A stretch of 62,680 bases of DNA, filler included. It is 4 parts of 4 records of this genome, joined end to end, with 100 filler letters (N's around TTAATTAATTAA, not from the genome) between each part and the next. Parts side by side here need not be neighbours in the genome. Positions count along the whole stretch, not along the records: positions 1 to 30,010 come from SRR20825006_719; 3 more parts are not named here. The stretch is one strand, 5' to 3'. The notes under the pieces are model-generated. The model saw only the letters and a program-made list of their open reading frames with translations, searched no databases and had not been told where the DNA came from. Of the stretch, positions 2,185 through 50,065 are shown piece by piece. Position 1 is the first letter of the stretch. Each line of letters begins with the position of its first letter. The position numbers were made by a program, and so were the translations under genes.

Positions 2185-2253
2185 TTTTCATATTAAACAT
2201 CCTTGCTCATATTTCAAAAACACATTAAATTTGTTAGCTTTTAAAAAAAATAC

Positions 2254-2778
2254 ATGGAAGAAACAACACTCGTTATAAGTTATGTAGCCTATTTATTACC
2301 TGCAATTGTTGTTGGTTTAGTTGCCTATTTTTTCTTTAAGGGGCATACTGCAAATGAAGAAGGCCGACGTAGGTATCTAGTTCAAAAAGAGGCGCAAAAA
2401 CAAGTATTACCGCTTCGACTGCAAGCTTATGAACGCATTACACTTTTATTGGAACGGATAGACCCAAACAAATTATTGGTGCGCGTAAAACCTTTTTCAG
2501 ATTCTAAAGATGATTATGAAAACTTATTAGTGAAAAATATTGAGCAAGAATTTGAACACAATCTTACGCAACAAATTTATGTTACCCCTGAATGCTGGAA
2601 CGTAGTTAATGCTGCGAAAAATGCTACAATTCACGTTATCCGTCAAGGGGCTATGCATGAAAAGGAGGGAAATGTAGATAAAATGCGAGAATGGCTATTA
2701 CAAAACTTTATTGAAGAAGTTACGCCTTCCCAAAAAGCGATGGGGTATATAAAAAAGGAAGTTAGTGAGCTTTTTTAA
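2254..2778 (+). CDS. conserved hypothetical membrane-anchored protein (Bacteroidota)
   Basis: N-terminal TM, LRLQAYER and EFEHNLTQQIYV motifs; TAAATTTG promoter-like box upstream. Confidence 0.75.
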   Translation: MEETTLVISYVAYLLPAIVVGLVAYFFFKGHTANEEGRRRYLVQKEAQKQVLPLRLQAYERITLLLERIDPNKLLVRVKPFSDSKDDYENLLVKNIEQEFEHNLTQQIYVTPECWNVVNAAKNATIHVIRQGAMHEKEGNVDKMREWLLQNFIEEVTPSQKAMGYIKKEVSELF

Positions 2779-2793
2779 AAGCAAAATGTTTCA

Positions 2794-3426
2794 TTAGGGC
2801 GTAAAAAGGTTATGGTGAATTGCAAATAACACAAGACCAATTCTGTTTCTTATACCGAGTTTTCTATATAAGGAGTCCCTATATCCTTCTACAGTTTTAT
2901 AACTACAATGCATAGCTACAGCAATTTCTTTATAATGCATATCCGAACAAGCTAGCTTAATAAACTCATACTCTTTGGGCTTAATATCAGTATCAATATC
3001 TTTATCTAAGGACTCCACAAGTATTTGTGATACTGTATTAGTATAATACTGCCCGTTTTTAACAACACTTATTAAAGCTTCTTCAAGTATATCTTTTTTA
3101 GTGTCTTTTAACAAATATCCTTTGGCCCCAGCACGAAGCATTTTTAATATGGTGTATTCATCTTCTTCAATGGAGAGCGCAAGTACTTTTATATTAGGAA
3201 ATTTATTTTTTAGTATTTCTGTAGTTTCTATTCCGTTAAGAATTGGCATTTTAATATCCATTAAAACTAAATCTGGAATATTGTCAGAATCTTTAAGTTT
3301 TTCCAACAACTCACTGCCGTTGCTGCATAAATAAAGCACTTTAAAATTATTAAAATCCTGCACTAGCCCCCCAATTGCTTGAGAAAGTAAAAAATGATCA
3401 TCAACAACGACTACAGAATATTTCAT
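2794..3426 (-). CDS. NarL/LuxR-family response regulator
   Basis: REC domain (VVDDH, LMDIKMP, GYLLK) plus C-terminal LuxR HTH (YKEIA...KTVEGYRDSLYRKL). Confidence 0.95.
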   Translation of the reverse strand: MKYSVVVVDDHFLLSQAIGGLVQDFNNFKVLYLCSNGSELLEKLKDSDNIPDLVLMDIKMPILNGIETTEILKNKFPNIKVLALSIEEDEYTILKMLRAGAKGYLLKDTKKDILEEALISVVKNGQYYTNTVSQILVESLDKDIDTDIKPKEYEFIKLACSDMHYKEIAVAMHCSYKTVEGYRDSLYRKLGIRNRIGLVLFAIHHNLFTP

Positions 3427-3462
3427 TTTATGATTTAATTAAAAATATTAATTTCAAATATA

Positions 3463-4215
3463 TTAAGTAAAATTATAATCTAGATAAAGCGCAGTTCCTT
3501 TATCCTTTATAGAATCTATTTTTAATGTTGAGTGAATAAGTTTTGCTCGGGTTTCCATATTTTTTAATCCAATACCCATAAAGTTATCAATTTTTTCAAA
3601 TCCAATGCCATCATCTTTGGCTGTAATTTTCAATTCATTATTAGAATAATTAAGTATTACCTTTAAGGATGATGCTTTTGAATGTTTTATTGTATTTGAA
3701 AAAAACTCTTGTAATATTCTAAAGATTATAACTTGTATATTACTTTCTACCGGTATTACATCTCCTTCAATTATTAATTCTGCTTTAATAAATTTCAATC
3801 TATTGAAACGTTCTATTTCTAAAGAAACGGCTTCTTTCAAGCTAAGGCTTTTAAGAGCTTCCGGGTTAATTAGTTTTGAAAGCGCTCTTAATTCATTAAT
3901 CCCAGAACCTATTGTTTTTGATACTTCGGTCATTAATTCGGGTTTTTCAAGCGCCATTTGGGATTGTATTTTGGCCAAGGTCATTATTTGACCAATATTA
4001 TCGTGTAATTCCCAACTAATATTTCGAAGTGTCTCTTCGCGTATCTCTATTTGTGATTCAGCTAGTTCACGATCAAAAACCTTTTTGGCTTCAGCCTGTT
4101 CTCGAAGCAATCGATTTTTTCTACTAGAAAAAACACTAAACAAAACGATAACAATAATAACCAATGATACTGGAATGGCTATTGCTGCTATTATTATAAT
4201 CTCTTTTTCATCCAT
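3463..4215 (-). CDS. sensor histidine kinase (HisKA_3 type) with a single TM helix and no sensor domain
   Basis: H-box ELHDNIGQ, N-box QEFFSNTIKHS, DDGIGF, GIGLKNM; one hydrophobic N-terminal helix. Confidence 0.93.
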   Translation of the reverse strand: MDEKEIIIIAAIAIPVSLVIIVIVLFSVFSSRKNRLLREQAEAKKVFDRELAESQIEIREETLRNISWELHDNIGQIMTLAKIQSQMALEKPELMTEVSKTIGSGINELRALSKLINPEALKSLSLKEAVSLEIERFNRLKFIKAELIIEGDVIPVESNIQVIIFRILQEFFSNTIKHSKASSLKVILNYSNNELKITAKDDGIGFEKIDNFMGIGLKNMETRAKLIHSTLKIDSIKDKGTALYLDYNFT

Positions 4216-4844
4216 AAAAACCCTGTCAGGAAAAATAAATACATCAATATAATTAAGGAAAACTGAATGATCAGTAAAATTTCAAAAAAACTATCTGGTT
4301 TGTAAAACCAAGTTTTTATAATTTTAATTGGAATATACCCAATGTAAAATAGAAAAAGACCAACACTAATCCAAAACAAAAGATCATTTTTCACTACTAA
4401 AACCAAGGATGATTGCAGGATACTTATATAATACAAAATGATGCATATTATAAGCATTCCTGCTCCCACAATATATGTTATTATAAAAGACTCATTAAGA
4501 ATATTTGAAAAAATAACATCTCCTAAAAAAACAAGCCAAAATAGCCCAAGGCTTATTTTTATACATTTTTTAAAAGCCAGAACATCAATTACTTTCATAA
4601 AAACATAAAAGAAAAATGAAAAGTAAGTTAAGTAATAAAAATTATAAACTATAAAAATAATATCACGATGACCAAATTTAAGTATCTGTCCTGCAAACTC
4701 AGTAGCAAGTGTAATAAATAGTATAATTGGCAAATGTTTTAAAGGCGTGTTTTTATACAACCGAAATCTAATTAACGCTATAACAAACACTATGACGTAA
4801 AGCGCCATAAAGGTATTTTCAAGTATGTTTAATGTTGTTTCCAA
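4194..4844 (-). CDS. hypothetical polytopic membrane protein (about 7 TM), putative receptor subunit
   Basis: 216 aa, almost entirely hydrophobic helices; overlaps the kinase start by 22 bp. Confidence 0.75.
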   Translation of the reverse strand: METTLNILENTFMALYVIVFVIALIRFRLYKNTPLKHLPIILFITLATEFAGQILKFGHRDIIFIVYNFYYLTYFSFFFYVFMKVIDVLAFKKCIKISLGLFWLVFLGDVIFSNILNESFIITYIVGAGMLIICIILYYISILQSSLVLVVKNDLLFWISVGLFLFYIGYIPIKIIKTWFYKPDSFFEILLIIQFSLIILMYLFFLTGFLWMKKRL

Positions 4845-4859
4845 GTAAAAATTTATAAC

Positions 4860-5537
4860 TTAATTATTCCCAAAGTCATCGTCACCTGGAGGTGGAATTA
4901 GTTGGCCGTCATTTATAATTAAACTTGTAGATTTTTGTACTGTACTGCTACTTGAAGTAAAAAAACCTGCTTCATTCATTTGATTTGATGAATCATCCGA
5001 TTCAGCATTTATGCTGTTAGCCTTTCCAGAATTTTTATTGATAGGTACAGCTACACTTTTCCCGTCCATATTTTCAATTGAAAACCCTACATTATTTCCT
5101 TCATAAGCCATTGTTGGAACTATGAAAAAACTATTTCGCCTTGGATATTTTACTATTTTTCCATCTGGAAATTTTTCGCTCGCTGGGTAAGTAGACATAT
5201 AAAAACGAAGCGTTTTTATATTAACTTTAGCGCCTTTTGCTTCATGTTCAATATATGCGATATATTGTTTTATTGTTTCTAAATCATATTCCGCGTAACG
5301 TGTAGGTAAGAATTTTTCAGCCTGCTTATCAATACTATCTTCAAATTTCTGAATAATAGGCACACGTCTTTCAGAATATGTTTCATACATGCTTTGTGCT
5401 TGTGCAACAGATATTATTTTGCCTTTTGGCGGACCGTCATACTGAGGTTCCACATGTGTATTTGTTTCTTGACAGCTAATGAATATTAAGTTGGCAAAAA
5501 TTAATACTAAAAATCGTTGGATCATTTTTGTTTTCAT
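4860..5537 (-). CDS. hypothetical lipoprotein with C-terminal NDGQLIPPP motif
   Basis: Start moved to ATG 5537 (MKTKMIQRFLVLIFANLIFISC): lipoprotein signal ending in lipobox Cys; 225 aa. Confidence 0.75.
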   Translation of the reverse strand: MKTKMIQRFLVLIFANLIFISCQETNTHVEPQYDGPPKGKIISVAQAQSMYETYSERRVPIIQKFEDSIDKQAEKFLPTRYAEYDLETIKQYIAYIEHEAKGAKVNIKTLRFYMSTYPASEKFPDGKIVKYPRRNSFFIVPTMAYEGNNVGFSIENMDGKSVAVPINKNSGKANSINAESDDSSNQMNEAGFFTSSSSTVQKSTSLIINDGQLIPPPGDDDFGNN

Positions 5538-5686
5538 AATATAGAGGTTTATGGTTAAGGTATAAATGTAACTACAAAAGCATTCACTTAAATGCAGGCA
5601 ATTTAGCCTTTGAAATGAATTCAAATCAAAGTTACTGATAATTAATAGATTAACTTTAAGGTCTATGTAAAATACAGGCAAAACAC

Positions 5687-5716
5687 TTAAAAAATGGGGG
5701 ATTCCCCCCTTTTTAA
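5687..5716. promoter_or_regulatory. palindrome TTAAAAAATGGGGG-ATT-CCCCCCTTTTTAA: patatin terminator and/or regulator-binding site
   Basis: Inverted repeat 12 bp downstream of the patatin stop and about 150 bp upstream of the lipoprotein start. Confidence 0.5.
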
Positions 5717-5728
5717 ATACATAAAGAT

Positions 5729-6643
5729 TTAGGCATCTTTTGTACGAACTTCGCTAAAATCTTCATTTTTTTGATGGGCATATATATAGCCACTTTCCCA
5801 CCATTTGCTCATCATTTCCTTATCAAAAATCAATGAATTTGTAGTTAAAACTGTAGGGGTATAATAAAGATTTATAATTGTGTTTTTATTTGCAGCTGCA
5901 AATTTACCAATTCGAATATTCTGTTTTTCAATGCGATCTGCCATATAATTGTGCATATTCGTAAGCAATGAAAAAACATTTTTTGAAGGTAGCCGATTGT
6001 AATACGTTACTTCAGTTTCCAGTACAATTACATCAACCGTTGTGGCGCCTCGGTTTATAGCCTCTTCAATAGGAACCATACTTCCAAAACCGCCATCGGC
6101 ATATTCACAACCTTCTTTTTTTACAAGACTCATAAAAGGCGTAAAGTTTGAAGAAATCCAAATCCAATCTAAAAAATCGTTGTACTCAAAATCATTGATA
6201 GATTTATATTCCACTTGACTCAATGAAAGGTTTGAAACCGTTACAACTACTTCCTTTTCTGAAGTTTTTAAGGCATTAAACTCATTTTCAGTAAACGTAT
6301 TTCCTATAAGTTTGCGCAAGTTTAGGCTTTCGCCAAAAGTTTTCTTCCCTTTAATAAAATTTTTAAGCACTGTTAAATGGTCAATCCCAATTTGTTTTCC
6401 ACCAAATTTATCTTCTTTTATTGTAAAGGGACAACTGCTAAAAATGCTCTTTTGGTTTACAGATGTAAAAATGTCTTTTATTTTTTCAACCTTATTAAGT
6501 GCCAAATGCGAAATAAGCAAACTCCCGGTGGAAGTTCCAACAAAAAGATCGTAATCATGGTGTAGCTGCTCCATTAAATACTGCGCCACACCTCCAGCAA
6601 ATGCGCCTTTACTTCCCCCGCCAGAAATTACCAACGCCCTCAT
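5729..6643 (-). CDS. patatin-like phospholipase
   Basis: GGGSKG, GTSTG nucleophile motif, DGG. Confidence 0.93.
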   Translation of the reverse strand: MRALVISGGGSKGAFAGGVAQYLMEQLHHDYDLFVGTSTGSLLISHLALNKVEKIKDIFTSVNQKSIFSSCPFTIKEDKFGGKQIGIDHLTVLKNFIKGKKTFGESLNLRKLIGNTFTENEFNALKTSEKEVVVTVSNLSLSQVEYKSINDFEYNDFLDWIWISSNFTPFMSLVKKEGCEYADGGFGSMVPIEEAINRGATTVDVIVLETEVTYYNRLPSKNVFSLLTNMHNYMADRIEKQNIRIGKFAAANKNTIINLYYTPTVLTTNSLIFDKEMMSKWWESGYIYAHQKNEDFSEVRTKDA

Positions 6644-8694
6644 TCTTTAACAATTAAATTTAAATAATTCGACGCTTTTTCTGAAAGTTGCCTCCCTAAA
6701 ACCTTCACTTGCTCGTAGTATTTTTGATTGCTAATTAAAGAATTTAAAAGTTCTTTTGAAGTCTTTGCAAATCGCCAAGTAGGATGAACACAGGCTTCCA
6801 CCAAATTTTTCATCGTTTCTAAATCCCATAATTGAAGCTCGTTTACATACTCAAACGCTTTTTCACGAATTTCAAAACTGTAATCTGTTGAAGTATAATT
6901 TTTTAATTCTTCCAAATACTTTTCCTTTTCAGTGGTTTTATAATTTTCAGTAATTAAAGCCAAAGCGAGCCATAGTTGACGAATATTTTTGTTCTGAAAA
7001 CCTTCAATTCCCTGAGTTTTGTTTAAATATTCACTTCTTTTTTCAGGAAATTGCATCCATAATTGATACAACGCAGCCTCTATTGTTACATAGGAATCGT
7101 CATTTAACAGACTTTCATATTCTGCTTGAAGTTCCTTCGGAATAGCTTGAAGCGAAAGTGCTACTGCCTGCCGAACATATAGATTATTACTTTCAAAAGC
7201 TTTTTTATATAGCGGAAGTACTTCTGAAATCGGTTCGTTTGCAAGTTGATAAACAGCTTCCTGCCCAATAAAATCGTTAGGAAAAGTTAATGCCGTTTTT
7301 AATTGATTTTTTTTGTCCTGCAACGCAGTGGCACGAAGTGCTGAAATTTCAAAATAGGTAGTAATGAAGGAAGATTTTAGCAAGGATTTATAGGCTTCTT
7401 CGGCTTTAAAAGCTGTTTGCAGCAACCAATCTTTTTCAAAGGTTTCAATATCAGCTTCTGAAACTGCTTTAACTTCATTCAAAAAATCATCTGTTGATAC
7501 ATTTTTAAATTTATATTTTTCCAAATAATTTTTGATGGCTGTTTTAAATGCTTCGTCCCCTATTCGTTCTCTTAAAATGTGAAGTGCCCAAGCTCCTTTT
7601 TGGTAAAAAGTGAGCGAACTCGCCTTCGGATTTAATAAGGATTCACCTTTTCCTTCATCGCTCATTGCTTTAAGTTGCTCTGCAGTTTGGTACAATTGCC
7701 AGTAATAATATTCTTCCCCAAAAATTTCTTTTTCGGCCAACAATGCGTAATAAGTTGCAAAACCTTCCTGTAGCCAATGGTCCTTATTTGCTGTTTCCGT
7801 AACCAAGTTGCCAAACCATTGGTGCGCAAGCTCGTGAGCGTTTACATTTACATAATTTCTATCTGCAAAACCTATAGAATCTACCATAAACGCTTCTGAA
7901 AAAAATGTAGCGGTTGTATTTTCCATTCCTGCATACAGAAAATCGCGAACTGGAACTTGCTTGTAATTTTGCCACGGATACGGTACGCCAATTTCACTTT
8001 CTAAAAAGTCGAAAATTTGTTTGCTATAGCGATAGGTAGGCTCAACTTTTAGTGAATCTTTTGGTTTATAATACAATTCTAATGGAATTCCAGAATTTGA
8101 AACGAGTTCTTTTCTATCAAAATCACCAATTGCGAAGGCTACCAAATAGCTAGGCATAGGTTGCTTCATATCAAAACGCCATGCATTAACTTCATGTACA
8201 TTCTGTATATCGATTAATTTTCCATTTGCAATTACAGCTTTATTTTTTGGAGATAGTATTAATAAATCAAACTCAATTTTATCGTTTACATCATCAATAC
8301 TTGGTAGCCAATGCGAAGTATATTTTCCCTGTCCTTGCGTCCAAATTTCATCTTTAAAGAAATAAAGGGTTTGTTTTGGTTTTATTTCGTACCAAAAATC
8401 AGCTTTATATGTCATTCCTTTTTCAAAACTTCCCACAAACCACAACTTTTTTTCATCTGAAGTTATCTTGAAATTTTTAGTTTCAACATTATTAATCTGA
8501 ATGTTTATTGCATCCATAAAAATAGAATCTGTGGCTTTTAAAACTTTAAAAGTGGTTAAAAATCGTCCTTCAACTTTTTCTTCAATTATATCTGTTCCAA
8601 CAGTTGCTTCAATCTTTAAAAAATCTACAACATCCGTCTGCTGTGCAAAAACAGTAAAACCCGAAAAAAGAAATGCAATGAGAAACTTGTGCAT
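6640..8694 (-). CDS. M1 family zinc aminopeptidase, secreted
   Basis: AGMEN, HELAHQW...E; start moved to MHKFLIAFLF (signal peptide), which avoids overlap with recG. Confidence 0.93.
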   Translation of the reverse strand: MHKFLIAFLFSGFTVFAQQTDVVDFLKIEATVGTDIIEEKVEGRFLTTFKVLKATDSIFMDAINIQINNVETKNFKITSDEKKLWFVGSFEKGMTYKADFWYEIKPKQTLYFFKDEIWTQGQGKYTSHWLPSIDDVNDKIEFDLLILSPKNKAVIANGKLIDIQNVHEVNAWRFDMKQPMPSYLVAFAIGDFDRKELVSNSGIPLELYYKPKDSLKVEPTYRYSKQIFDFLESEIGVPYPWQNYKQVPVRDFLYAGMENTTATFFSEAFMVDSIGFADRNYVNVNAHELAHQWFGNLVTETANKDHWLQEGFATYYALLAEKEIFGEEYYYWQLYQTAEQLKAMSDEGKGESLLNPKASSLTFYQKGAWALHILRERIGDEAFKTAIKNYLEKYKFKNVSTDDFLNEVKAVSEADIETFEKDWLLQTAFKAEEAYKSLLKSSFITTYFEISALRATALQDKKNQLKTALTFPNDFIGQEAVYQLANEPISEVLPLYKKAFESNNLYVRQAVALSLQAIPKELQAEYESLLNDDSYVTIEAALYQLWMQFPEKRSEYLNKTQGIEGFQNKNIRQLWLALALITENYKTTEKEKYLEELKNYTSTDYSFEIREKAFEYVNELQLWDLETMKNLVEACVHPTWRFAKTSKELLNSLISNQKYYEQVKVLGRQLSEKASNYLNLIVKE

Positions 8695-29572: not shown

Positions 29573-30010
29573 ATGACCGAACTACAGCAAACCATAGAAA
29601 AAGCTTGGGATGACCGCTCGCTACTTTCCGAAACAGAAACAATAAACGCAATCCGCGAAGTAGTAAACCTTTGTGATGAAGGAACCTTGCGTTGTGCTGA
29701 ACCAACAGAAAACGGTTGGCAAGTAAATGAATGGGTAAAAAAGGCGATAGTTCTTTATTTTCCAATCCAAAAAATGGAAACATTAGAAGCTGGAATATTT
29801 GAATATCATGATAAAATTCCTTTAAAAAGAGGTTACGAAGCTAAAGGCATTCGCGTGGTGCCACATGCTGTTGCGCGTCATGGCGCCTATATTTCTAAAG
29901 GTGTTATTTTAATGCCAAGTTATGTAAATATTGGTGCTTATGTAGATGAAGGTACAATGGTTGATACGTGGGCTACTGTGGGTAGTTGTGCACAAATTGG
30001 TAAAAATGTA
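29573..30010 (+). CDS. dapD: tetrahydrodipicolinate N-succinyltransferase (truncated by contig end)
   Basis: WQVNEWVKKA, DKIPLK, LMPSYVNIGAYVDEGTMVDTWATVGSCAQIG. Confidence 0.95.
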
Positions 30011-30110
30011 NNNNNNNNNNNNNNNNNNNNNNNNNNNNNNNNNNNNNNNNNNNNTTAATTAATTAANNNNNNNNNNNNNNNNNNNNNNNNNNNNNNNNNN
30101 NNNNNNNNNN
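30011..30110. other. artificial contig spacer
   Basis: 44 N + TTAATTAATTAA (stops in six frames) + 44 N; abrupt GC shift. Confidence 0.99.
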
Positions 30111-30126
30111 TCTGTGCCCTTGGGTA

Positions 30127-30138
30127 AATTCGACCTAC
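30127..30138 (-). repeat. partial GTAG-type REP element at contig start
   Basis: AATTCGACCTAC (rc GTAGGTCGAATT); shares AATTCGACC with the palindrome at 41963-41992. Confidence 0.5.
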
Positions 30139-30162
30139 TTGGCAGCTTAAACTGGATGCGAT

Positions 30163-30378
30163 TCATTCGGAGAAGGTATCGATGAATAACGCTTCCACCT
30201 TGTCTCTCGCCCAGGGTGTTTTGCGCAGAAACTTCAAGCTGGACTTCACTGACGGATCGCTGATAAAGCAATTGATGCGAATGCGATCGCCCAGCTCGTC
30301 CCAGCCATAGTATTCAACCAGGCGCGTCACCACGGTTTCCAGGGTGATGCCATGCAACGGATTGTTCGGTTGGCTCAT
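30163..30378 (-). CDS. VF530 family (DUF2132) small DNA-binding protein
   Basis: [10 protein letters not shown]...YGW...[24 protein letters not shown]. Confidence 0.92.
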
Positions 30379-30390
30379 CTGCGTGGCCCT

Positions 30391-31311
30391 TCAGTCTGCT
30401 TTTGAAAGGACAAAACCGTCGCGGGGAAAATGCACTTGAATCTGCCCCACCACGGGATCATCGCGACGAACCACCAGCGTGCGGTCATCGCAATAACACA
30501 GCTCACCGAACACCGGCTCACGGCCATAATCTGACGGTGCCACTCGCACTGCCTTACCCAGCAAAGATGTCTGCTCCACCTGTTCGGGCAGGGCCCGCGG
30601 CGTAGCCTGGCGAGCGATCTCCAAAGCCTCATCCGCACTGATATCCTTGCGCGTGCCCTGCCCGAAGGCTTGCATACGGTTCATCCAGGCCTCCACTTTC
30701 GGATGGCTGCCCGCAATATTTCGCCCGGCCAGATCACGGCGAAACCAGAGGCTGTGATAGGCGGAAAAGTCACCGGCATTGGGCGCATCACCAAACAGGA
30801 AATGCCCGGTCAGCAGGGTTTCCATATGATCCAGATGCACGGCCACCTTGCGACGCATTTCGCGGGGGCTGTCGGCTTTCACTTTCGACTTGCTGCCCAT
30901 CTTGATCCGGTCCAGTAACAGGCGCCCCAGATCCAGCAGTGACGACTCTTTCAGTACCCGGCGCAACAGGGTGAAATTCCCGGCCGTGACAATGGAGGCC
31001 AGAAATATCTCCAGGTCCACCTCACGGACAAAGGCCTGCACCTCTTCACTGCAATTCTCCACCACCAGCTCGGGCTTGTTGCTCAGCCGGGCAATTTCGC
31101 GGCTGAGGGTGCGGGTATCACAAAAAACATCAGCGCCAATCTGCGCCACCGGAATTTTCCGGTAGCCGCTGGCCAGCGGCGCCAACTTGGGGCGCGGTGG
31201 CATTTCCGCCACAGTGACCGACTGCCATTGCAAGCCGGCATAACCCAACATGGCGCGGGCTTTCTCGGAAAACGGGGACAGCGTGTAGTGGTGCAGAATC
31301 AGTTCTGACAT
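30391..31311 (-). CDS. glutathione S-transferase family protein
   Basis: LHHYTLSPFSEK, GYRKIPVAQIGADVFCDT; start moved to ATG 31311. Confidence 0.9.
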   Translation of the reverse strand: MSELILHHYTLSPFSEKARAMLGYAGLQWQSVTVAEMPPRPKLAPLASGYRKIPVAQIGADVFCDTRTLSREIARLSNKPELVVENCSEEVQAFVREVDLEIFLASIVTAGNFTLLRRVLKESSLLDLGRLLLDRIKMGSKSKVKADSPREMRRKVAVHLDHMETLLTGHFLFGDAPNAGDFSAYHSLWFRRDLAGRNIAGSHPKVEAWMNRMQAFGQGTRKDISADEALEIARQATPRALPEQVEQTSLLGKAVRVAPSDYGREPVFGELCYCDDRTLVVRRDDPVVGQIQVHFPRDGFVLSKAD

Positions 31312-31467
31312 GAAAGCATCCTGAATTAAGTGATCCGTATGGCGGCAAGCCTCATATCCCCGCGCGACAAGGTCAAGCATCCATTGCCCTACCGCTGCGT
31401 TGGCAACCCTGTAATATACGCAACTCTTTGCTCTTTGCGCCCCTCACTGCCGACGGACCTGCAGATA

Positions 31468-32490
31468 ATGAAATGGATTTACCGTTTATTGATTGCCGCC
31501 TTTATTGCTCTGGTTGTGGGGGGCGCCGTTTCCACCGCCCAGGACCACTGGCGCATGCATCAGGACGCCATGATCCGCATGCAGGAAAACCTGCTCAAGC
31601 AACAACAAAAGCAGCAGGAGCTCAGCAACCGTATTGCGCAGACCCGGGCCAAACCCACCCTCAGTGACCACGACCGCTGGTTGATTGCCCACCTGGAAAA
31701 GGCCCGCGCCGGCCTAGACAAGATACTGGTTACCCAGCAGTCGGGCATCTCCCGGCTGCAACGCAGCTTCCTGCGTACCTGGGTCGGCAACCTGGTGCTG
31801 TTCATCGCGCTGGCCGGGCTGGGGCTCGGCATAGTGACGCGTTCCGGTAATGCCCTGAACAAGGAAGAGCAGCGCTGGCTGGCCAGCCGCCCGGAGGACA
31901 TTCCCTCACTCAGGCTGGATCCCGGCGCGCACCGCAACGCGACGGCCCCTACCCGTAACGCCAGTAACTTTGTGACCGGGCGCATCCGGGCCGTGAAGGC
32001 TGACCGGCTACAGGTAAAGCGCAGCGGCATACTCAGCGCCATGGGCTTGAGCTTTATCATCGCCCCGCAAGGCGGGCTGATCGTGGAACTGTATTTCCTC
32101 TACGACGCGCTGATGGTTGCCCATACTCCGTTTCAACAACTGGAATGGGGCGGCATGATGCAAAGCCTGATGTTATCGATCCCATTCACCCTGGTGGGCC
32201 TGTACCTGCTGGCATCCAGCACCAGCCAGGCCAGCATCGATCGTCGCGAACAAATCATCACCCTGCCCGATGGCCCCCGTACCATTGTGTTCAGGGACGT
32301 GGAATCCATTCAGCTCAACCAGATACTGAGCACCGGCGAACGCAGCTACCTGAACAGCCAGATTCAGTTAAACCTGAATAACGGCGAGGTCCTGTCATTG
32401 CTCAGCCATGGCGGCAAGGAGCAGATCTATGTGGACCTGATCCGCACGGCCCTGTTTATGGACAAACCCGCAGTGCTGCTGCACCACTAG
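31468..32490 (+). CDS. hypothetical membrane protein (TM, coiled coil, further TMs)
   Basis: Start MKWIYRLL at 31468; Gln-rich helix; 3-4 hydrophobic segments. Confidence 0.7.
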   Translation: MKWIYRLLIAAFIALVVGGAVSTAQDHWRMHQDAMIRMQENLLKQQQKQQELSNRIAQTRAKPTLSDHDRWLIAHLEKARAGLDKILVTQQSGISRLQRSFLRTWVGNLVLFIALAGLGLGIVTRSGNALNKEEQRWLASRPEDIPSLRLDPGAHRNATAPTRNASNFVTGRIRAVKADRLQVKRSGILSAMGLSFIIAPQGGLIVELYFLYDALMVAHTPFQQLEWGGMMQSLMLSIPFTLVGLYLLASSTSQASIDRREQIITLPDGPRTIVFRDVESIQLNQILSTGERSYLNSQIQLNLNNGEVLSLLSHGGKEQIYVDLIRTALFMDKPAVLLHH

Positions 32491-32505
32491 ACGACCGGTC
32501 TAATT
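32487..32505. promoter_or_regulatory. NemR-type TetR operator, copy 1
   Basis: CTAGACGACCGGTCTAATT (TAGAC-N5-GTCTA palindrome) upstream of the tetR gene; exact copy at 33190. Confidence 0.85.
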
Positions 32506-32524
32506 AGGTGGTAAAGTGCCGCCC

Positions 32525-33133
32525 ATGAATACGCAAACCGCTATCCGTCAGCCCGGCAAACACCGTGACACCCGCCAGCACCTGCTGGATACGGGCCGTG
32601 ACATTCTGGCTGCCCGCGGTTTCAGTTCCGTCGGCTTGAGTGCCATCCTGCAAGCCGCCGGCGTGCCAAAAGGCTCGTTCTACCACTATTTCCAGTCCAA
32701 AGAACAATTTGGCCAGGCATTGCTGGAAGATTATTTTGCCAGCTACATTCAAGACCTGGATGCCCGCTTCGCCGATGACGGCACACCGGCCATCAGCCGA
32801 CTGATGAGTTACTGGCAGGGCTGGCAGGAAAACTACTGCGGCCCGGCCGGCCTGCGCGACTGCCTGGTGGTCAAGCTGAGCGCGGAAGTCGCCGATCTGT
32901 CTGAAGCCATGCGCATCACTCTGCGCGACGGCACTGACCAGGTCATGGCGCGAATCGCCAACTGCATAGAGGCCGCCATCGCCGATGGCTCTCTGCCCCC
33001 GCAGCCGGCACACCAAACGGCAGGCAACCTGTACCAGCTGTGGCTGGGCGCCAGCTTGCTCACCAAACTGCATCGCAATGCCGCCCCCATGAACAACGCC
33101 ATGATGCTGACCCATAGCCTGCTGGCGCGCTGA
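32525..33133 (+). CDS. nemR: TetR family regulator, NemR-like
   Basis: GVPKGSFYHYFQSKEQFG HTH; CLVVKLSAEVADLSEAMR, the NemR-type Cys motif; alternative GTG start at 32516. Confidence 0.85.
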   Translation: MNTQTAIRQPGKHRDTRQHLLDTGRDILAARGFSSVGLSAILQAAGVPKGSFYHYFQSKEQFGQALLEDYFASYIQDLDARFADDGTPAISRLMSYWQGWQENYCGPAGLRDCLVVKLSAEVADLSEAMRITLRDGTDQVMARIANCIEAAIADGSLPPQPAHQTAGNLYQLWLGASLLTKLHRNAAPMNNAMMLTHSLLAR

Positions 33134-33154
33134 CACCCACAGAACATGAATGCG

Positions 33155-33178
33155 GCCTGCTTTCGAGCAGGCTTTTTT
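33155..33178 (+). terminator. intrinsic terminator
   Basis: GCCTGCT-TTCG-AGCAGGC-TTTTTT. Confidence 0.85.
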
Positions 33179-33189
33179 ACCACTCGACT

Positions 33190-33208
33190 CTAGACGACCG
33201 GTCTAATT
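33190..33208. promoter_or_regulatory. NemR-type TetR operator, copy 2
   Basis: CTAGACGACCGGTCTAATT, 31 bp upstream of yqhD. Confidence 0.85.
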
Positions 33209-33239
33209 TAAATACTTTACCGACCAAGGATACCGCAGC

Positions 33240-34397
33240 ATGAATAACTTCGATTTCTACAACCCCACCCGCATCGCCTTTGGCGAAGGAAAGATAGCCG
33301 CCCTCGACACCCTGGTACCTAAAGACGCCAAGATCCTGGTTCTGTTTGGCGGCGAAAGCGCTCGCCGCACTGGCACCCTGGATGAAGTGGAAGCCGCATT
33401 GGACGGCCGCCAAGTGCAACTGTTTGGTGGCATTGAACCCAATCCGAGTTTTGAAACCTTGATGGAAGCCGTCAGCGTGGTGCAGCGCGACGGCATCGAT
33501 TACCTGCTGGCGGTGGGTGGCGGATCCGTCATCGACGGCACCAAGTTTGTCGCCGCGGCCTCCGTATTCGAGGGCAATGCCTGGGACATCCTGCTAAAGG
33601 GCGGCACCAATATTCATCGCGCATTGCCGTTCGGTTCAGTGCTGACCTTGCCTGCCACCGGTTCGGAAATGAACAAGGGCGCCGTGGTGACACGCAAATC
33701 GCTGCAAGCCAAATTGCCGTTTCACAGCGAGCAGGTGTTCCCGCAATTTTCCGTGCTGGATCCCACCAAGAGCTTCACCCTGCCCCCTCGGCAGGTGGCA
33801 AATGGTGTGGTTGATGCCTTTGTGCATATCGTCGAGCAATATCTCACCTACCCGGCCAATGCACCGGTACAGGACCGATTCGCCGAAGGCTTGCTGCAAA
33901 CCCTGATCGAGATTGGCCCACAGGCCCTGGCGGATCCGGAAAATTATGATGTGCGCGCCAACCTGATGTGGGTCGCCACCCTGGCACTCAATGGCCTGAT
34001 CGGCTCCGGCGTTCCCCAGGACTGGGCCACCCATATGCTGGGCCATGAACTCACTGCCCTGCATGGCCTGGACCATGCGCAGACCCTGGCCATTGTGCTG
34101 CCGGCCATGCTCGCCGAACGCAAAGACGCCAAGCACGACAAACTGGTGCAGTACGCACAACGGGTCTGGTCCATCCATGAAGGCAGCGAGTCAGAGCAGG
34201 CCGAGGCAGCGATTGAAAAAACCCGCGCCTTCTTCGAAAGCCTGGGCGTAAAGACCCGCCTCGGGGATTACCAATTGGCAGAGGAACATATCGAACCGCT
34301 GGTCAACAGCCTTGAAGCCCACGGCATGACCGCGCTGGGTGAACATAATGATGTCACCCCCGACGTGTGTCGCCGCGTGCTGCACGCCAGCCTCTAA
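33240..34397 (+). CDS. yqhD: iron-containing NADPH-dependent aldehyde reductase, YqhD-like
   Basis: FYNPTRIAFGEG, GGGSVIDGTK, TLPATGSE, DWATHMLGHELTALHGLDHA. Confidence 0.9.
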   Translation: MNNFDFYNPTRIAFGEGKIAALDTLVPKDAKILVLFGGESARRTGTLDEVEAALDGRQVQLFGGIEPNPSFETLMEAVSVVQRDGIDYLLAVGGGSVIDGTKFVAAASVFEGNAWDILLKGGTNIHRALPFGSVLTLPATGSEMNKGAVVTRKSLQAKLPFHSEQVFPQFSVLDPTKSFTLPPRQVANGVVDAFVHIVEQYLTYPANAPVQDRFAEGLLQTLIEIGPQALADPENYDVRANLMWVATLALNGLIGSGVPQDWATHMLGHELTALHGLDHAQTLAIVLPAMLAERKDAKHDKLVQYAQRVWSIHEGSESEQAEAAIEKTRAFFESLGVKTRLGDYQLAEEHIEPLVNSLEAHGMTALGEHNDVTPDVCRRVLHASL

Positions 34398-34467
34398 CCA
34401 CCCCACTCTTGCGCAACCCCACCCCGGCTTCGAGGTGGCACTGAGATGAAATTGACGGAGAGCAACC

Positions 34468-35142
34468 ATGAATATTCTGATGATTCTCACCTCCCACGAC
34501 CAACTGGGCGACACGGGCAACAAGACCGGTTTCTGGCTGGAAGAATTTGCCGCGCCTTACTATGTTTTCAAGGATGCAGGCGCCACCATCACACTGGCCT
34601 CCCCCAAAGGCGGCCAACCGCCGCTTGACCCAAAGAGCGATAGCCCCGACGCGCAAACCGCCGCCACCGATCGCTTCAACCAGGATACCGACGCCAAATC
34701 TGCACTGGCCAATACCAGGCCCTTGTCCGAACTGGATCCCCAGGCATTTGATGCCGTTTTCTATCCCGGCGGCCATGGTCCCCTCTGGGATCTGGCTGAA
34801 GATGCCACCTCCATTGCCTTGATTGAAGCCTTCAACAACAGCGGCAAACCCATCGGCGCGGTGTGTCACGCTCCCGCTGTCTTTCGCCACACCCGCCATA
34901 ACGGCGAACCGCTGGTCAAAGGTCGCGCCGTCACCGGCTTCACCAATGGCGAGGAAGACGGTGTGCAACTCACCGACATCGTTCCCTTTCTGGTGGAAGA
35001 CATGCTCAAGGCCAACGGCGGCGTTTATGAAAAAGGCGACGACTGGGCCAACCATGTAGTCACCGACGGCAACCTGGTGACCGGGCAGAACCCCGCCTCA
35101 TCAGAAGCAGGAGCAAAAGCCTTGCTGGCATTGCTTTCGTAG
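34468..35142 (+). CDS. DJ-1/PfpI family protein (class I glutamine amidotransferase-like, glyoxalase III-like)
   Basis: TGFWLEEFAAPY, PGGHGPLWDL, AVCHAP, TGQNPAS. Confidence 0.92.
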   Translation: MNILMILTSHDQLGDTGNKTGFWLEEFAAPYYVFKDAGATITLASPKGGQPPLDPKSDSPDAQTAATDRFNQDTDAKSALANTRPLSELDPQAFDAVFYPGGHGPLWDLAEDATSIALIEAFNNSGKPIGAVCHAPAVFRHTRHNGEPLVKGRAVTGFTNGEEDGVQLTDIVPFLVEDMLKANGGVYEKGDDWANHVVTDGNLVTGQNPASSEAGAKALLALLS

Positions 35143-35151
35143 CAGGAAAAT

Positions 35152-35181
35152 AAAAAAGGGCGCCAACAGGCGCCCTTTTTT
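35152..35181. terminator. bidirectional intrinsic terminator
   Basis: AAAAAAGGGCGCC-AACA-GGCGCCCTTTTTT. Confidence 0.9.
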
Positions 35182-35298
35182 ATGGCGGTTTACGCCAGGC
35201 ATCCGGCGTCAAGCGTTTGGCAAAGCGCCGGGTATGCGGGATAAACCAGGCCGATGGCGAGAAGCATGTTATTTACTCTAATCCGCGAAGCACCTTTT

Positions 35299-36300
35299 CT
35301 ATTCGTAGCTCAGGTCTGTGGCCTTGCCGCGAAAGACCCGGTAGATAAAAAACGTATAACAAAGAATCATTGGTAGCGTAATCACCGTTCCCCAGAACGT
35401 GAACAACAACGATTCCGTCGCCGATGCGGCTTCCCAGATCGACAACCGCCCCAGCACAATATCCGGAAACAGGCTGTAAGCCAGCCCGATACTCGCCAGC
35501 ACACACATCACAATCAACGACAGAAACGCCAACCAGCCATACCCGTTGTGTAGAATCCGGTTGCTGTTAAACACCCAGATCAATCCGGCATACGCCAGCC
35601 CTGTGGCAATCGGAATGGGCATCAGACCAATGGCGTTGGGCAGGGTGAACCATTTCTCTGCAATCGTGGCACTGACCAGCGGCGTGGCAATGGAGATCAG
35701 CAATAAAAATGCCCCCATTGGCAACACCGCTAGCCGCCCCCAATGCACCGCCTTTTTAAATAGCGCCCCTTCAGTCTTGATCAGTAACCAGGAGGCCCCC
35801 AGCATGATGTAGAGTGCCGGCAGAGCCAGCGCAATTAAAAAGGCGAACAAGGTGTTGGTGGCATCCCCGGTGAGACCGGTCACAAAAGCGCCCAGCATCC
35901 AGCCCTGGGACACCGAGGCTATCAGGGACCCCACGGCAAAAAGCATGTTCCATTTGGCCTTGTGCTTGTCCCCTGCCTTGACCCGGAAATCAAACGACAC
36001 ACCGCGCAGTATCAGCCCCATAAGCATCAGCGTCACGGGCAGATAGAGCGAGGTCAGCACCAATCCATGAGCTTGGGGAAAAGCGATCAGCAAGATACCC
36101 ACGCCCAGCACGATCCAGGTTTCGTTGGCATCCCAGAACGGGCCGATGGCGGCCACCATGACATCCTTCTCGTCCTCATCGGCAAAGGGCAACAGCAAGC
36201 CGATGCCCAGATCATACCCATCAAGCACCACATAAATCAGCAGCGCCAACCCCATGGCGCCGGCAAAGAACAGCGGAAGCCAGTATCCCAGATCCATCAC
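35299..36300 (-). CDS. cydB: cytochrome bd (CioB-type) ubiquinol oxidase subunit II
   Basis: YVVLDGYDLGIG, PFWDANETW, LILRGVSFDFR. Confidence 0.95.
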   Translation of the reverse strand: MMDLGYWLPLFFAGAMGLALLIYVVLDGYDLGIGLLLPFADEDEKDVMVAAIGPFWDANETWIVLGVGILLIAFPQAHGLVLTSLYLPVTLMLMGLILRGVSFDFRVKAGDKHKAKWNMLFAVGSLIASVSQGWMLGAFVTGLTGDATNTLFAFLIALALPALYIMLGASWLLIKTEGALFKKAVHWGRLAVLPMGAFLLLISIATPLVSATIAEKWFTLPNAIGLMPIPIATGLAYAGLIWVFNSNRILHNGYGWLAFLSLIVMCVLASIGLAYSLFPDIVLGRLSIWEAASATESLLFTFWGTVITLPMILCYTFFIYRVFRGKATDLSYE

Positions 36301-37685
36301 GCCTCTCCTTGTGCTGATTCATCGTCGATCCTTTCCGCCTTCATGGCCCGCTGCTGAGGCGTCAGTGTCAGCGAACGCGCCGGTTTGGTCGCCATGTACC
36401 GCAACGCGGCTATGTAGGACACCAGCAAAAAGGCATAGAGCAGCACATAACCAAACAGGGTTCCCATCACCGTGGCACTACTGTGATCGGCCACCACCTC
36501 GGACGTGCGCAAAAGCCCGCTGACAATCCACGGCTGACGGCCGATCTCGGTCACGTACCAGCCCGCCAATACCGCAACCCAGCCCGAGAAGGTCATCACT
36601 GACAAGGCTCGCAGCAACCAGATCTGGTTGTCCCGGTTTTCATCACGCCGCCGGAACAGGCGCCATGCTGCCCACCAGCCGACCAATACCATCAGCATGC
36701 CCACGCCCACCATGACCCGGAACGACCAGAACACCGGCGCCACCGGCGGAATATCGTCGCCGAATTCATTCAGGCCCTGGATTTCCCCGTTCCAGTCATG
36801 GGTCAGAATCAGGCTGGCTCCATGGGGAATGGTAATGGCCATGTGGTTGGTTTTTGCCTCTTCATCCGGGAAGCCAAACAGCGTCAGTGGAGCCCCTTTT
36901 TCGGTCTCCCATATGCCTTCCATGGCAGCAATCTTGGCGGGCTGATGCTCCAGCGTATTCAAACCATGCAAGTCACCAATCCAGACCTGAAGTGGCGCGA
37001 GCACCGCCGCCATCAATGCGCCGGTACGCATGACTTTCCAGGTCGCCGGGCCGTCCACCTGACGCCTGGCTCGCCAGGCACTCACCCCCATGATCAGAAA
37101 CGCCGCGGTTAACAGCGAAGCATTCAGCATGTGGGCCAGTCGATAGGGGAAAGACGGGTTGAAGATCGCCTCCCACCAGCTGTCCACAAAAAATACGCCG
37201 TCTTCAAGACGGAATCCGGTGGGGGTCTGCATCCAGGAATTCAGGCTGAGGATCCAGAATGCGGAGAAACTGGTCCCCACCGCCACCAGCGCACAGGACA
37301 CCAGGTGAAGGCGGTTGGACACCCGGTTTTTCCCGAACAGCATGATGCCAAGAAATGAGGCTTCCAGAAAAAAGGCCGTCAGCACTTCATACCCCAGCAA
37401 CGGGCCGGCGATATTCCCCGCCCGCTCCATGAACCCGGGCCAGTTAGTGCCGAACTGAAAACTCATGGTGATGCCCGACACCACCCCCAGGGCAAAACTG
37501 AGGGCAAAAATCTTCACCCAGAAAAAATAGGCATATTCCCAGGCCTTGTCACCGGAGAAGGTGTAGCGCAAACGAAAATAGAACAGCACCCAGCACAGGC
37601 CGATGGTGATAGTGGGAAACAGGATATGAAAGCTGATATTGGCGGCGAACTGCAGCCGGGCCAACAGGAACGGATCAAATTCCAC
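36297..37685 (-). CDS. cydA: cytochrome bd (CioA-type, short Q-loop) ubiquinol oxidase subunit I
   Basis: LARLQFA...FHILFP, FQFGTNW, QPAKIAAMEG, EIGRQPW; GTG start with AAGGAG RBS. Confidence 0.95.
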   Translation of the reverse strand: MEFDPFLLARLQFAANISFHILFPTITIGLCWVLFYFRLRYTFSGDKAWEYAYFFWVKIFALSFALGVVSGITMSFQFGTNWPGFMERAGNIAGPLLGYEVLTAFFLEASFLGIMLFGKNRVSNRLHLVSCALVAVGTSFSAFWILSLNSWMQTPTGFRLEDGVFFVDSWWEAIFNPSFPYRLAHMLNASLLTAAFLIMGVSAWRARRQVDGPATWKVMRTGALMAAVLAPLQVWIGDLHGLNTLEHQPAKIAAMEGIWETEKGAPLTLFGFPDEEAKTNHMAITIPHGASLILTHDWNGEIQGLNEFGDDIPPVAPVFWSFRVMVGVGMLMVLVGWWAAWRLFRRRDENRDNQIWLLRALSVMTFSGWVAVLAGWYVTEIGRQPWIVSGLLRTSEVVADHSSATVMGTLFGYVLLYAFLLVSYIAALRYMATKPARSLTLTPQQRAMKAERIDDESAQGEA

Positions 37686-37975
37686 CGGGGCGACTCCTTC
37701 CTTTCGTCCAGTGACGAAGTTTCATTCCTCCAGACAGTAGCACAGGGGGATGCAGGGTAAATGAGACAAAAGGTCCATGCAGGGCGCCACCGCACGTGAA
37801 GAAGACGACAAGAACCAACAGGTGTTAACACTTTGTATACACCCGCAACATTTCCCCGTCCTGTCCACAACACGTTATGCACAGCATCCACCGGGTTTAG
37901 CCAACAAAATGCACTTCATGAAACTGGCAATCCGTTTTGGTCATGCCAGCAAGTTCACTTTCTGGAGAGCACACC

Positions 37976-38989
37976 ATGAAAACAAGAATGGGGCTGGTAG
38001 CCCTGGCCACCGCAGCCATATTGTCCCTGAGCGGCAATGCCATGGCACTGACCAAGCGAACCTTTTGCGTCTTCGACATCATCGGCGCCAATGGTGACAC
38101 CTTTAACATCATGCGCGACTACAAGACTGCCGCTGTCGAGTGGGGCGTGGATGTAGAGCTGAAGCCCTACACCGATGAAAAAATTGCCTCTGAAGACCTG
38201 AAAGCCGGGCAATGTGATGCCGCCGTGCTAACCGGTATTCGTGGGCGTCAGTTCAACAGCTACACCGGCAGCATGGATTCCATTGGCGCCATCCCCAGCT
38301 ACGATGCCATGAGAACAGTGATTGCGGTGATTGCCAGCAACAGCCCCAGCGTCAACCAGCATCTGGTTTCCGGCCCCTATGAAGTGGGCGGGGTTGCCCC
38401 GCTCGGCGCGGCCTTCCTGTTCCTGAAAGACAAGGAAATCGACACCGTTGAAGAACTGGCGGGCAAATCCATCGCGGTACTGGAATATGACAGCGCCCAG
38501 GCCAGCATGGCGTCCCGGGTCGGCATGTCGCCGGTCATGTCCGATATCACCAACTTCTCCACTCGTTTCAACAACGGTTCCGTGGATATCTGCTTTGCTC
38601 CGGTAATGGGTTACTCCGCGCTGGAACTGTACAAGGGCATGGCTCCGGATGGCGGTATCCTTGACTACGTACTGGGCCAGCTGAGCGCTCAGGTCATTCT
38701 TAAAAAGGATAAATTCCCGGAAGACTATGGCCAGAAATCCCGAGCCTTCATGTTCAGCCAGTTTGATCGCGCCATGAAGCTGATTGATAACGCCAGCAAT
38801 GAGATTGCCGACCGCTGGTGGATTCGCATTCCCGAGAAAGACAAGCTGCGTTATGACGAAATGATGCGCGAAGCCCGCATCGAGCTGACCAAGAAAGGGG
38901 TCTACAGCAAAGACATGATGTCCCTGCTGCTCAAGGTTCGCTGCAAGCAGGATCCCTCACGGGCGGAGTGTGTTAACCCGGTGGAATAA
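37976..38989 (+). CDS. putative periplasmic solute-binding protein (DUF6091/AdeT-like)
   Basis: Signal peptide; CVFDIIGANGD, YTDEKIASEDLKAGQCDA, VRCKQDPSRAEC; family assignment from recall. Confidence 0.75.
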   Translation: MKTRMGLVALATAAILSLSGNAMALTKRTFCVFDIIGANGDTFNIMRDYKTAAVEWGVDVELKPYTDEKIASEDLKAGQCDAAVLTGIRGRQFNSYTGSMDSIGAIPSYDAMRTVIAVIASNSPSVNQHLVSGPYEVGGVAPLGAAFLFLKDKEIDTVEELAGKSIAVLEYDSAQASMASRVGMSPVMSDITNFSTRFNNGSVDICFAPVMGYSALELYKGMAPDGGILDYVLGQLSAQVILKKDKFPEDYGQKSRAFMFSQFDRAMKLIDNASNEIADRWWIRIPEKDKLRYDEMMREARIELTKKGVYSKDMMSLLLKVRCKQDPSRAECVNPVE

Positions 38990-39014
38990 CCGGCTTTAAA
39001 CAGACGACTCCGAT

Positions 39015-39045
39015 AAAACGCCGCCAGCATCCCTGGCGGCGTTTT
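39015..39045 (+). terminator. intrinsic terminator
   Basis: AAAACGCCGCCAG-CATCC-CTGGCGGCGTTTT. Confidence 0.85.
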
Positions 39046-39135
39046 CGTTTCACGCTGGTGCAAACGCCTCACCTTGAGGCCCCATTGCCCTGGCCGAACA
39101 GCAATTGAACGCCACCACAAAGCTGGGTAGGTTAT

Positions 39136-39189
39136 TTAAGGAACCTCTGTAAAACTCCTTACATGCTCAGTCTTTCAGAGGTTCCTTAA
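39136..39189. mobile_element. 46-bp MITE-like element with IS5-family-like ends, flanked by TTAA
   Basis: TTAA-GGAACCTCTGTAAAACT...AGTCTTTCAGAGGTTCC-TTAA; 17-bp terminal IRs match 15/17. Confidence 0.6.
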
Positions 39190-39237
39190 CGCACCGCCTG
39201 TGCGGCGCCCCACTTTCACTCTGAGCTGCAACGAGCC

Positions 39238-40440: not shown

Positions 40441-40485
40441 TACCCTGTAGGCAGTCACATTCACTGCCATCTTTCAGGATATTGC

Positions 40486-41940: not shown

Positions 41941-41962
41941 AAGAGACCGCGTTTTGGCATTC

Positions 41963-42036
41963 TGTCGGATTACGGCTGCGCCTAATTCGACCGATCTGAA
42001 GCTCAATGTCGGGTTACGCCGCTACGCGGCTAACAC
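41963..42036. repeat. two tandem REP-like palindromes at contig end
   Basis: TGTCGGATTACGGCTGCGCCTAATTCGACC and TGTCGGGTTACGCCGCTACGCGGCTAACAC (cut by gap). Confidence 0.7.
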
Positions 42037-42136
42037 NNNNNNNNNNNNNNNNNNNNNNNNNNNNNNNNNNNNNNNNNNNNTTAATTAATTAANNNNNNNN
42101 NNNNNNNNNNNNNNNNNNNNNNNNNNNNNNNNNNNN
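42037..42136. other. artificial contig spacer
   Basis: 44 N + TTAATTAATTAA + 44 N. Confidence 0.99.
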
Positions 42137-42997: not shown

Positions 42998-43006
42998 AGT
43001 CCAAAA

Positions 43007-45253: not shown

Positions 45254-45259
45254 ATATTC

Positions 45260-47569: not shown

Positions 47570-47575
47570 TACATC

Positions 47576-50051: not shown

Positions 50052-50065
50052 AAAAATTAAATTTC

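Follow-up and report, generated by a model that had tools for sequence, protein, structure and literature searches.

This study concerns a four-gene cassette on the minus strand of a 62,680-nucleotide stretch of DNA (the window, at its full length), whose host is a marine flavobacterium that carries one copy of it. The genes encode, in order, a protein here called X, a protein with seven transmembrane helices (7-TM), a sensorless histidine kinase and a NarL/LuxR-type response regulator. The cassette is a real, conserved unit, in which X and the 7-TM protein are inherited together with a one-helix kinase and are almost never found separately. The 7-TM protein probably reads the Pro-rich tail of the protein encoded beside it and passes the signal to the sensorless kinase; the fuller reading, in which the X tail is a protein-borne agonist for the 7-TM protein, signalling via the one-helix kinase to an autoregulated NarL output, is given a probability of about 0.4. 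The module is a widespread variant of accessory-protein two-component signalling, apparently uncharacterised so far, and two of its protein families are unclassified. No description of it was found in the literature searched, a search that mostly stopped short of subscription papers and all supplements, which could describe it. To our knowledge, how abundant marine and soil Bacteroidota signal to one another is poorly understood; the module is common, and both of its input proteins, X and the 7-TM protein, lack a curated family.

A preliminary description of the locus had proposed four tightly packed co-directional genes in this order, and the open reading frames at 2794-5537, all on the minus strand, bear this out. 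The gene for X (4860-5537) encodes 225 residues from the ATG that homologues use; a first possible TTG at 5681 would give 273 residues and is probably not the start. After a gap of 15 bp follows the 7-TM gene (4194-4844; 216 residues, TTG start), which overlaps the kinase gene (3463-4215; 250 residues) by 22 bp at 4194-4215, and then the regulator gene (2794-3426; 210 residues). The individual assignments made at that time hold as well: X is a predicted lipoprotein with a lipobox-like FIS-C22 and the C-terminal end that had been quoted (...SLIINDGQLIPPPGDDDFGNN), the protein of about seven transmembrane helices that overlaps the next gene has seven helices in its AlphaFold2 model, and Pfam domains confirm both the NarL regulator and the HisKA_3 kinase, which has one hydrophobic helix and no sensor domain. 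The end coordinate given then, 5716, takes in a palindrome (5694-5711) upstream of X.

The conservation of the unit was followed by sampling that covered Bacteroidota. An X-based search returned 37 metagenome and 49 genome loci, and among those with at least 2.6 kb downstream all four genes stand in order in 22 of 23 metagenome and 37 of 42 genome loci. The remaining six (L014, L060, L061, L063, L065 and L066, in Maribacter/Flagellimonas/Cellulophaga-type genomes) hold X and one or two 7-TM genes but neither kinase nor regulator in the vicinity; their kinase may lie elsewhere. A 7-TM profile of 125 sequences, from the best 150 of 329 matches, matched 64 of 301 sampled Bacteroidota genomes at 129 places. 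In 118 7-TM-anchored regions, a denominator that still includes two CHASE2-cyclase false positives (L239 and L240), a profile-confirmed X lies upstream in 83, a HisKA_3 kinase directly downstream in 95 and a regulator nearby in 88, with the strict four-gene order in 57. In many of the 34 regions without an X profile match, a protein encoded upstream nevertheless ends in a similar motif; several others have no such protein. Sets of 7-TM protein, kinase and regulator with no X-like gene in front (L173, L197, L202, L210, L212 and L233), some of them adjoining a divergent second regulator, are possibly receiver-only cassettes.

Within the host's family, 118 of 151 genomes matched the X profile; 103 did so strongly, and the 15 weak matches (E 7e-5 or worse) were set aside. 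Matches listed outside the top 30 gave 94 regions, 80 of which formed an X-anchored sample; a 7-TM gene stands next to X in all 80, in some of them within an array of up to four. Forty of these regions contain all four genes, and 35 contain X, 7-TM gene and kinase with no regulator in reach. The 7-TM protein was found in 31 of 41 genomes of one family and in 14/41, 17/61 and 23/41 genomes of further groups, with at most 6 full-length copies per genome. The co-occurrence of X and 7-TM genes with kinase and regulator that the preliminary description expected across Bacteroidota is therefore present in these neighbourhood searches. The gene maps of the 118 and 80 regions, whose flanks were mapped by size and identified only in some cases, show no recurrent gene for a dedicated peptidase or exporter, such as AgrB or a peptidase-ABC protein; this negative concerns the locus only, and a processing enzyme may lie elsewhere in the genome. 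The two input proteins diverge faster than the others, identities across Aequorivita-type loci being 55-61% for X and 60-68% for the 7-TM protein, compared with 78-81% for the kinase and 77-82% for the regulator.

The AlphaFold2 model of the 7-TM protein consists of seven long helices at a mean confidence (pLDDT) of 96.6. A fold search with VIA-align returned GPCR (G-protein-coupled receptor) or rhodopsin-fold chains in all 50 of its 50 rows, the top rows being adhesion GPCRs tied with other GPCRs. The best match, ADGRF1 (Z 12.3, root-mean-square deviation 4.1, 193 residues aligned), has a Z of about 12 that is below the tool's caution level of 13 for helical bundles, and Foldseek gave the same list without significance (best E 0.064). 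The modelled protein is thus a GPCR/rhodopsin-type bundle, a resemblance of fold only, by which no homology or function is shown. A rhodopsin identity was rejected because the retinal-binding lysine is absent from the middle of helix 7 (residues 185-211), which contains no lysine in this protein or in the family consensus. Basic residues that follow helix 1 and occur again at the C-terminus point to an N-out/C-in topology, under which the conserved polar residues E49, N68 and Y70 would fall in the outer half, an arrangement that fits a pocket open to the periplasm in the model.

Family searches place the 7-TM protein nowhere: it has no Pfam or NCBIfam match. Of the known bacterial seven-helix families, neither HisKA_7TM nor 7TMR-DISM_7TM matched the window protein; HisKA_7TM matched none of 149 members, and 7TMR-DISM_7TM matched one of 149 weakly (E 0.0048) and none of 125 in another member set. 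The ESM Atlas yielded nothing but unnamed Bacteroidota clusters, of which one bears the automatic label 'putative Histidine kinase N-terminal 7TM region' without Pfam support, and a cluster look-up of 10 distant 7-TM proteins returned no names. At Flavobacteriaceae-level loci (L311, L314, L287, L291 and L330), tandem arrays of 2-4 diverged 7-TM genes precede a single kinase, possibly providing several input specificities on one kinase; some of the array loci hold two X genes.

Protein X has an alpha/beta core over about residues 37-165; a disordered linker at 170-198 joins it to the tail, where a Pro-rich motif is conserved around N209-P217. In its structure model (pLDDT 83.2) order returns at residues 201-214, with a pLDDT of 86 over residues 201-210. 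The tail motif, residues 205-217 (4887-4925, minus strand), is the candidate ligand epitope and in the model is docked on X's own core. Coupling analysis within X (mean-field direct coupling analysis, DCA) links the same two parts through Y117-N209 (z 6.1), A82/Y84-G211, T88-I208 and F138-I207, couplings that draw on the same kind of information as the structure model. Since model and covariation both have the tail docked on X's folded core, the tail as predicted is not a free propeptide.

Conservation in X is confined to the tail motif and the core, where R111, Y113, Y117 and T142 are conserved. Across the family, whose members measure about 100-310 residues, the tail takes the form N/D/E-x-G-x3-4-PP or CPxxC. 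The ungapped motif could be anchored in 287 of 324 sequences, with N/D/E at position 0 in 97%, G at +2 in 59%, and P at +6 and +7 in 71% and 83%; position 0 is E in 10%, and the family as a whole has no invariant residue. The stretch beyond the motif differs in length between members (9-25 from the anchor at the 5th-95th percentile), and a tail peptide would thus lack a fixed mature end. Among 323 distinct X/7-TM pairs the tail is of the PP type in 199, CPxxC in 88, G...P in 9 and other in 27. The N-x-G..PP and CPxxC types form one family (HHalign 95.3%, E 2.3e-8), and a CPxxC-seeded profile recovers 86 window-type X proteins with zero matches to reversed-sequence decoys. Within the linker, several Flavobacteriaceae groups conserve a short motif whose last residues are Ala-Gly-Phe-Phe-like (residues 186-193, window about 4950-4985), a candidate site for cleavage or docking.

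A simple lipobox and hydropathy rule sorted 90 members into 16 lipoproteins, 33 with a signal or anchor helix and 41 with neither, indicating that export of X is not universal in the family. X has no Pfam or NCBIfam match, no significant fold match in the PDB or among viral models (best Z 3.6), which does not by itself prove a new fold, and its core has no fold or profile match to any enzyme. PDB sequence searches with the cassette proteins that lack a curated family gave nothing credible; a partial hydrophobic match to Na/K-ATPase was rejected. A plasmid search gave no match, and viral contigs held no relative of X.

The kinase has one N-terminal hydrophobic helix followed by a coiled coil, HisKA_3 (E 7.6e-6) and HATPase_c (E 1.1e-7), with no sensor domain, and the regulator has Response_reg and GerE domains. 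The pair belongs to the HisKA_3/NarL two-component class, with Pfam matches above cut-off and both H71 of the kinase and D57 of the regulator present. The kinase's best partial NCBIfam matches are UhpB, MctS and LiaS, all far below the family cut-offs. Its helix appears to be oriented N-out, so the 7-TM protein and kinase would not simply be a fused sensor cut in two; side-by-side packing of helices is the likely mode of coupling between them. In the 22 regions without a HisKA_3 kinase, 7 of 8 downstream reading frames scanned encode one-helix PAS kinases, which can be aligned by eye with the HisKA_3 type over the helix and the basic juxtamembrane stretch (the row of the window kinase, which covers the wrong end of that protein, was ignored). 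Because this helix and stretch are shared, the kinase helix would be the common coupling part. The same X/7-TM input on one-helix PAS kinases is seen at L162, L166, L184, L193, L209, L211 and L213, two of these kinases being hybrids that carry a receiver domain. A receptor split from its kinase, as had been proposed, fits both the GPCR-type fold and the partnership with one-helix kinases of two classes.

Upstream of X lies a palindromic, operator-like site (5694-5711) that scores 16.6 bits, the best match in the first 30 kb of the window, with a weaker second site (5673-5690; 5.6 bits) 21 bp from it. The matrix was trained on 45 other loci, and at a threshold of 12 bits it finds sites in 13 of the 45 upstream regions held out from training and in 15 of 26 additional loci, compared with 4 of 170 regions upstream of other genes. 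De novo expectation maximisation on 116 upstream regions returned the same palindrome as the best motif. The palindromes cluster 80-140 bp before the start and often repeat at 21-24 bp (18 of 27 spacings), and Aequorivita upstream regions conserve the G-rich palindrome and a second half-site. We infer that the palindrome is an operator for the cassette's own regulator, and its enrichment suggests autoregulation with positive feedback. In the host genome the strong site lies between the stop of the patatin gene and a run of T, and may therefore double as the terminator of this upstream gene. Elsewhere, two perfect palindromes in Aequorivita sp. Q41 (L460:1501-1518 and 1662-1679) lie upstream of genes for a 216-aa membrane protein and a 99-aa winged-helix-like protein, a possible target operon; the other sites inspected were one just after clpC and one inside a gene. 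Matches at 62261, 31147 and 30967 of the window were rejected as lying in GC-rich DNA of another organism.

Contact between X and the 7-TM protein was examined by mean-field DCA on 286 pairs (effective number 237), with neighbour-swapped re-pairing as control. Couplings above z 3.5 between tail and 7-TM protein occur at 4.8 and 5.1 per 1000 pairs, compared with 4.0 and 3.4 in the highest of 14 re-pairing controls. For position +1 of the tail there are couplings to Y71, Y124 and L72 of the 7-TM protein at z 4.8, 4.8 and 4.5 (control maxima 3.9, 3.3 and 2.8), with a trend to acid/base complementarity, basic tails occurring with T/D and acidic tails with Y/R/K. Mutual information is dominated by shared ancestry. 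Binding of the X tail to the 7-TM protein is, on these covariation data, a lead only.

In the proposed mechanism, the X core would hold its own Pro-rich tail in a latent state at the end of the disordered linker, and the tail could be exposed by unfolding, by cleavage of the linker, or by release of X through lysis or vesicles. The exposed tail would then enter the outward-facing pocket of the 7-TM protein, by analogy with the tethered agonist of adhesion GPCRs, and the 7-TM protein, packed against the single helix of the kinase, would switch its activity, as a sensory rhodopsin does with its transducer. The phosphorylated NarL regulator may bind the tandem palindromes upstream of X and raise expression of the operon.

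Several results weigh against this agonist reading. The preliminary description had named covariation between the X C-terminus and the 7-TM loops as a check, and overall X-to-7-TM covariation does not exceed that of the re-paired controls, the top coupling of z 5.6 being inside their range of 5.2-6.5. Couplings of the tail are not enriched on the outer half of the 7-TM protein over the inner, position +1 was chosen after the data had been seen and its figures are uncorrected for that selection, and 7-TM-to-kinase covariation gives no clear contact. To these may be added the fold-match Z below the caution level, and the 41 of 90 X proteins without a detectable signal peptide, which would need lysis or another route to the outer pocket. 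Upstream of some 7-TM/kinase pairs (e.g., L173, L197, L202 and L212) there is no X-like gene. The palindrome, searched genome-wide in two genomes with one mismatch allowed, occurs 19 versus 22 and 21 versus 14 times relative to control, which is no enrichment; the strict pattern is likewise not enriched in the two genomes and reveals no clear regulon.

The main rival is an accessory complex like SaePQ, in which X and the 7-TM protein, induced by the regulator, bind and tune the kinase (e.g., its phosphatase activity) or jointly sense an outside or envelope cue, the tail being mainly structural; we regard this as a possible, though rather doubtful, account. It draws on the shared gene logic, since saePQRS also places a lipoprotein and a membrane protein upstream and, in the available text of PMC5083920, has an autoinduced promoter with two regulator sites, comparable to the tandem sites here. 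The packing of the X tail on its own core and the absence of a clear top coupling from X to the 7-TM protein also suit it. However, the same text gives SaeQ four predicted helices and has SaeS sensing alone, whereas the cassette has a sensorless kinase and a receptor-like 7-TM pocket, and the fast divergence of X and 7-TM protein together with the tandem 7-TM arrays fits specificity better than a generic brake. An unlikely reading, with odds well short of even, is quorum sensing of the Agr/Com type, in which a short peptide cut from the X C-terminus diffuses and activates the 7-TM protein of neighbouring cells according to density. The preliminary description favoured such an analogue, with X or a peptide released from it as the ligand. 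What stands of it is the conserved motif at the terminus, which follows a disordered linker and which a Cys pair could cyclise in 88 of 323 X proteins, along with the operator-like palindrome, the fast-diverging input parts and the several paralogous cassettes per genome. Against it, the tail is bound to a conserved 110-residue core in the model, 41 of 90 members have no signal peptide, no peptidase or exporter gene recurs in the maps, and the variable length after the motif leaves no fixed mature end; a released quorum-sensing peptide is only a possibility.

Two further readings carry much less weight. That the X core is an enzyme or autoprocessing domain, which either acts on its own tail, by modification or cleavage, or produces a small-molecule ligand of the 7-TM protein, would agree with the conserved R111, Y113, Y117 and T142, with the covariation of Y117 with N209 and with the many members that look cytoplasmic; the lack of any enzyme-like fold or profile match, the frequent E (10%) at position 0 and the absence of a family-wide invariant residue make it very improbable. 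Hardly credible is a pair of X and 7-TM protein that acts apart from the kinase and regulator and is merely co-regulated with them. The six kinase-less loci and the 35 of 80 X-anchored regions that have no regulator within reach are what such a pair would leave, but the 7-TM gene overlaps or abuts that of a one-helix kinase in most regions, across two kinase classes, and this kinase is without any other input domain.

As for its surroundings, the cassette had been described as more AT-rich than its neighbours, and this is real though only modest, with a GC content of 0.25-0.34 in 500-bp windows over 2751-5750 compared with mostly 0.33-0.41 nearby. Recent horizontal transfer was set aside as an explanation, because in Aequorivita-type loci the cassette is flanked by the same two genes, patatin and DUF7935. 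Among named homologues of X the closest, at 88%, comes from Aequorivita sp. Q41, at a locus with the same gene order and flanks. A public contig (run X1) covers 2200-6700 with zero differences and may itself be the source, and pieces from run X4, of a second study, match the cassette stretch exactly. By its GC blocks, the window as a whole looks like a join of DNA from different organisms (about 0.30-0.38 at 1-30000, 0.55-0.60 at 30001-42000, 0.34-0.44 at 42001-54000 and 0.54-0.58 at 54001-62000). The genes of the last, GC-rich block are unlike those of the flavobacterial part and include, as labelled from sequence patterns, a 423-aa pentapeptide-repeat protein (57715-58986) and a 371-aa protein with repeated Asp-rich calcium-binding-like motifs (61534-62649).

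If the agonist reading is true, a bacterial GPCR-fold receptor for a protein ligand would bear on the origin of GPCRs, which the available text of PMC13466386 discusses from prokaryotic rhodopsins. A still wider reading, which we put forward as speculative and rather unlikely, is a phylum-wide, kin-specific cell-to-cell signalling of Bacteroidota with a retinal-free GPCR-fold receptor, an encoded protein agonist whose Pro-rich or disulfide-ringed tail is latent in a carrier domain, a two-component switch with positive feedback, and receptor arrays that hear other lineages. The cassette supplies candidates for ligand, receptor, kinase, regulator and reporter promoter, and is thus directly testable in culturable flavobacteria.

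By membership features the cassette falls outside the Agr/Com systems, the rhodopsins and the fused bacterial 7-TM families. Seven-helix bacterial sensors are already known in HisKA_7TM and 7TMR-DISM_7TM, but those are fused, whereas the 7-TM protein here is stand-alone in the gene maps and has no match at family cut-off. In Agr, signal and receptor diverge faster than the other parts. The cassette shares with Agr/Com systems a candidate signal gene adjoining a polytopic receptor, kinase and regulator, a fast-diverging input, likely positive feedback and, in some X members, a five-residue Cys ring. It differs in that the receptor is split from the kinase in separate, overlapping genes, in that the 'precursor' is a folded protein of about 100-310 residues predicted to bind its own tail rather than a short propeptide, in that no processing or export gene recurs, and in that the regulator is of the NarL and not the LytTR type. 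Adhesion GPCRs resemble it in the 7-TM fold and in an agonist strand held inside a folded domain; they differ in that there is no sequence relation, X has no GAIN-like fold, the ligand carrier is a separate gene, and the signal would go to a histidine kinase, not to a G protein. In UhpABC and LiaFSR, as in the cassette, a separate membrane protein is paired with a HisKA_3 kinase and a NarL regulator, and there it controls them.

SaePQRS of Staphylococcus aureus likewise has four genes in one operon, those for a lipoprotein and a membrane protein preceding those for a near-sensorless kinase and a regulator, and the first promoter of that operon is autoinduced through two regulator sites, as the tandem palindromes of the cassette may be; SaePQ is dispensable for activation and switches on phosphatase activity, as far as the available text of PMC5083920 goes. 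According to the same text SaeQ has four predicted helices, whereas the cassette has a seven-helix GPCR-type bundle, a kinase with one helix and HisKA_3, and an X with a conserved tail motif. No Sae family is among the Pfam or NCBIfam matches of the cassette, with which Sae sequences were not compared directly. In the sensory rhodopsins SRI and SRII with their transducers HtrI and HtrII, a stand-alone seven-helix receptor signals via a separate membrane partner to a histidine kinase, as summarised in the available text of PMC13466386. In contrast to these, the 7-TM protein of the cassette has no retinal lysine in helix 7, its partner is the one-helix kinase itself, and the output is a transcription factor, not CheA/CheY. 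By analogy, the cassette is thus most like SaePQRS in its gene logic and most like a sensory rhodopsin with its transducer in its architecture.

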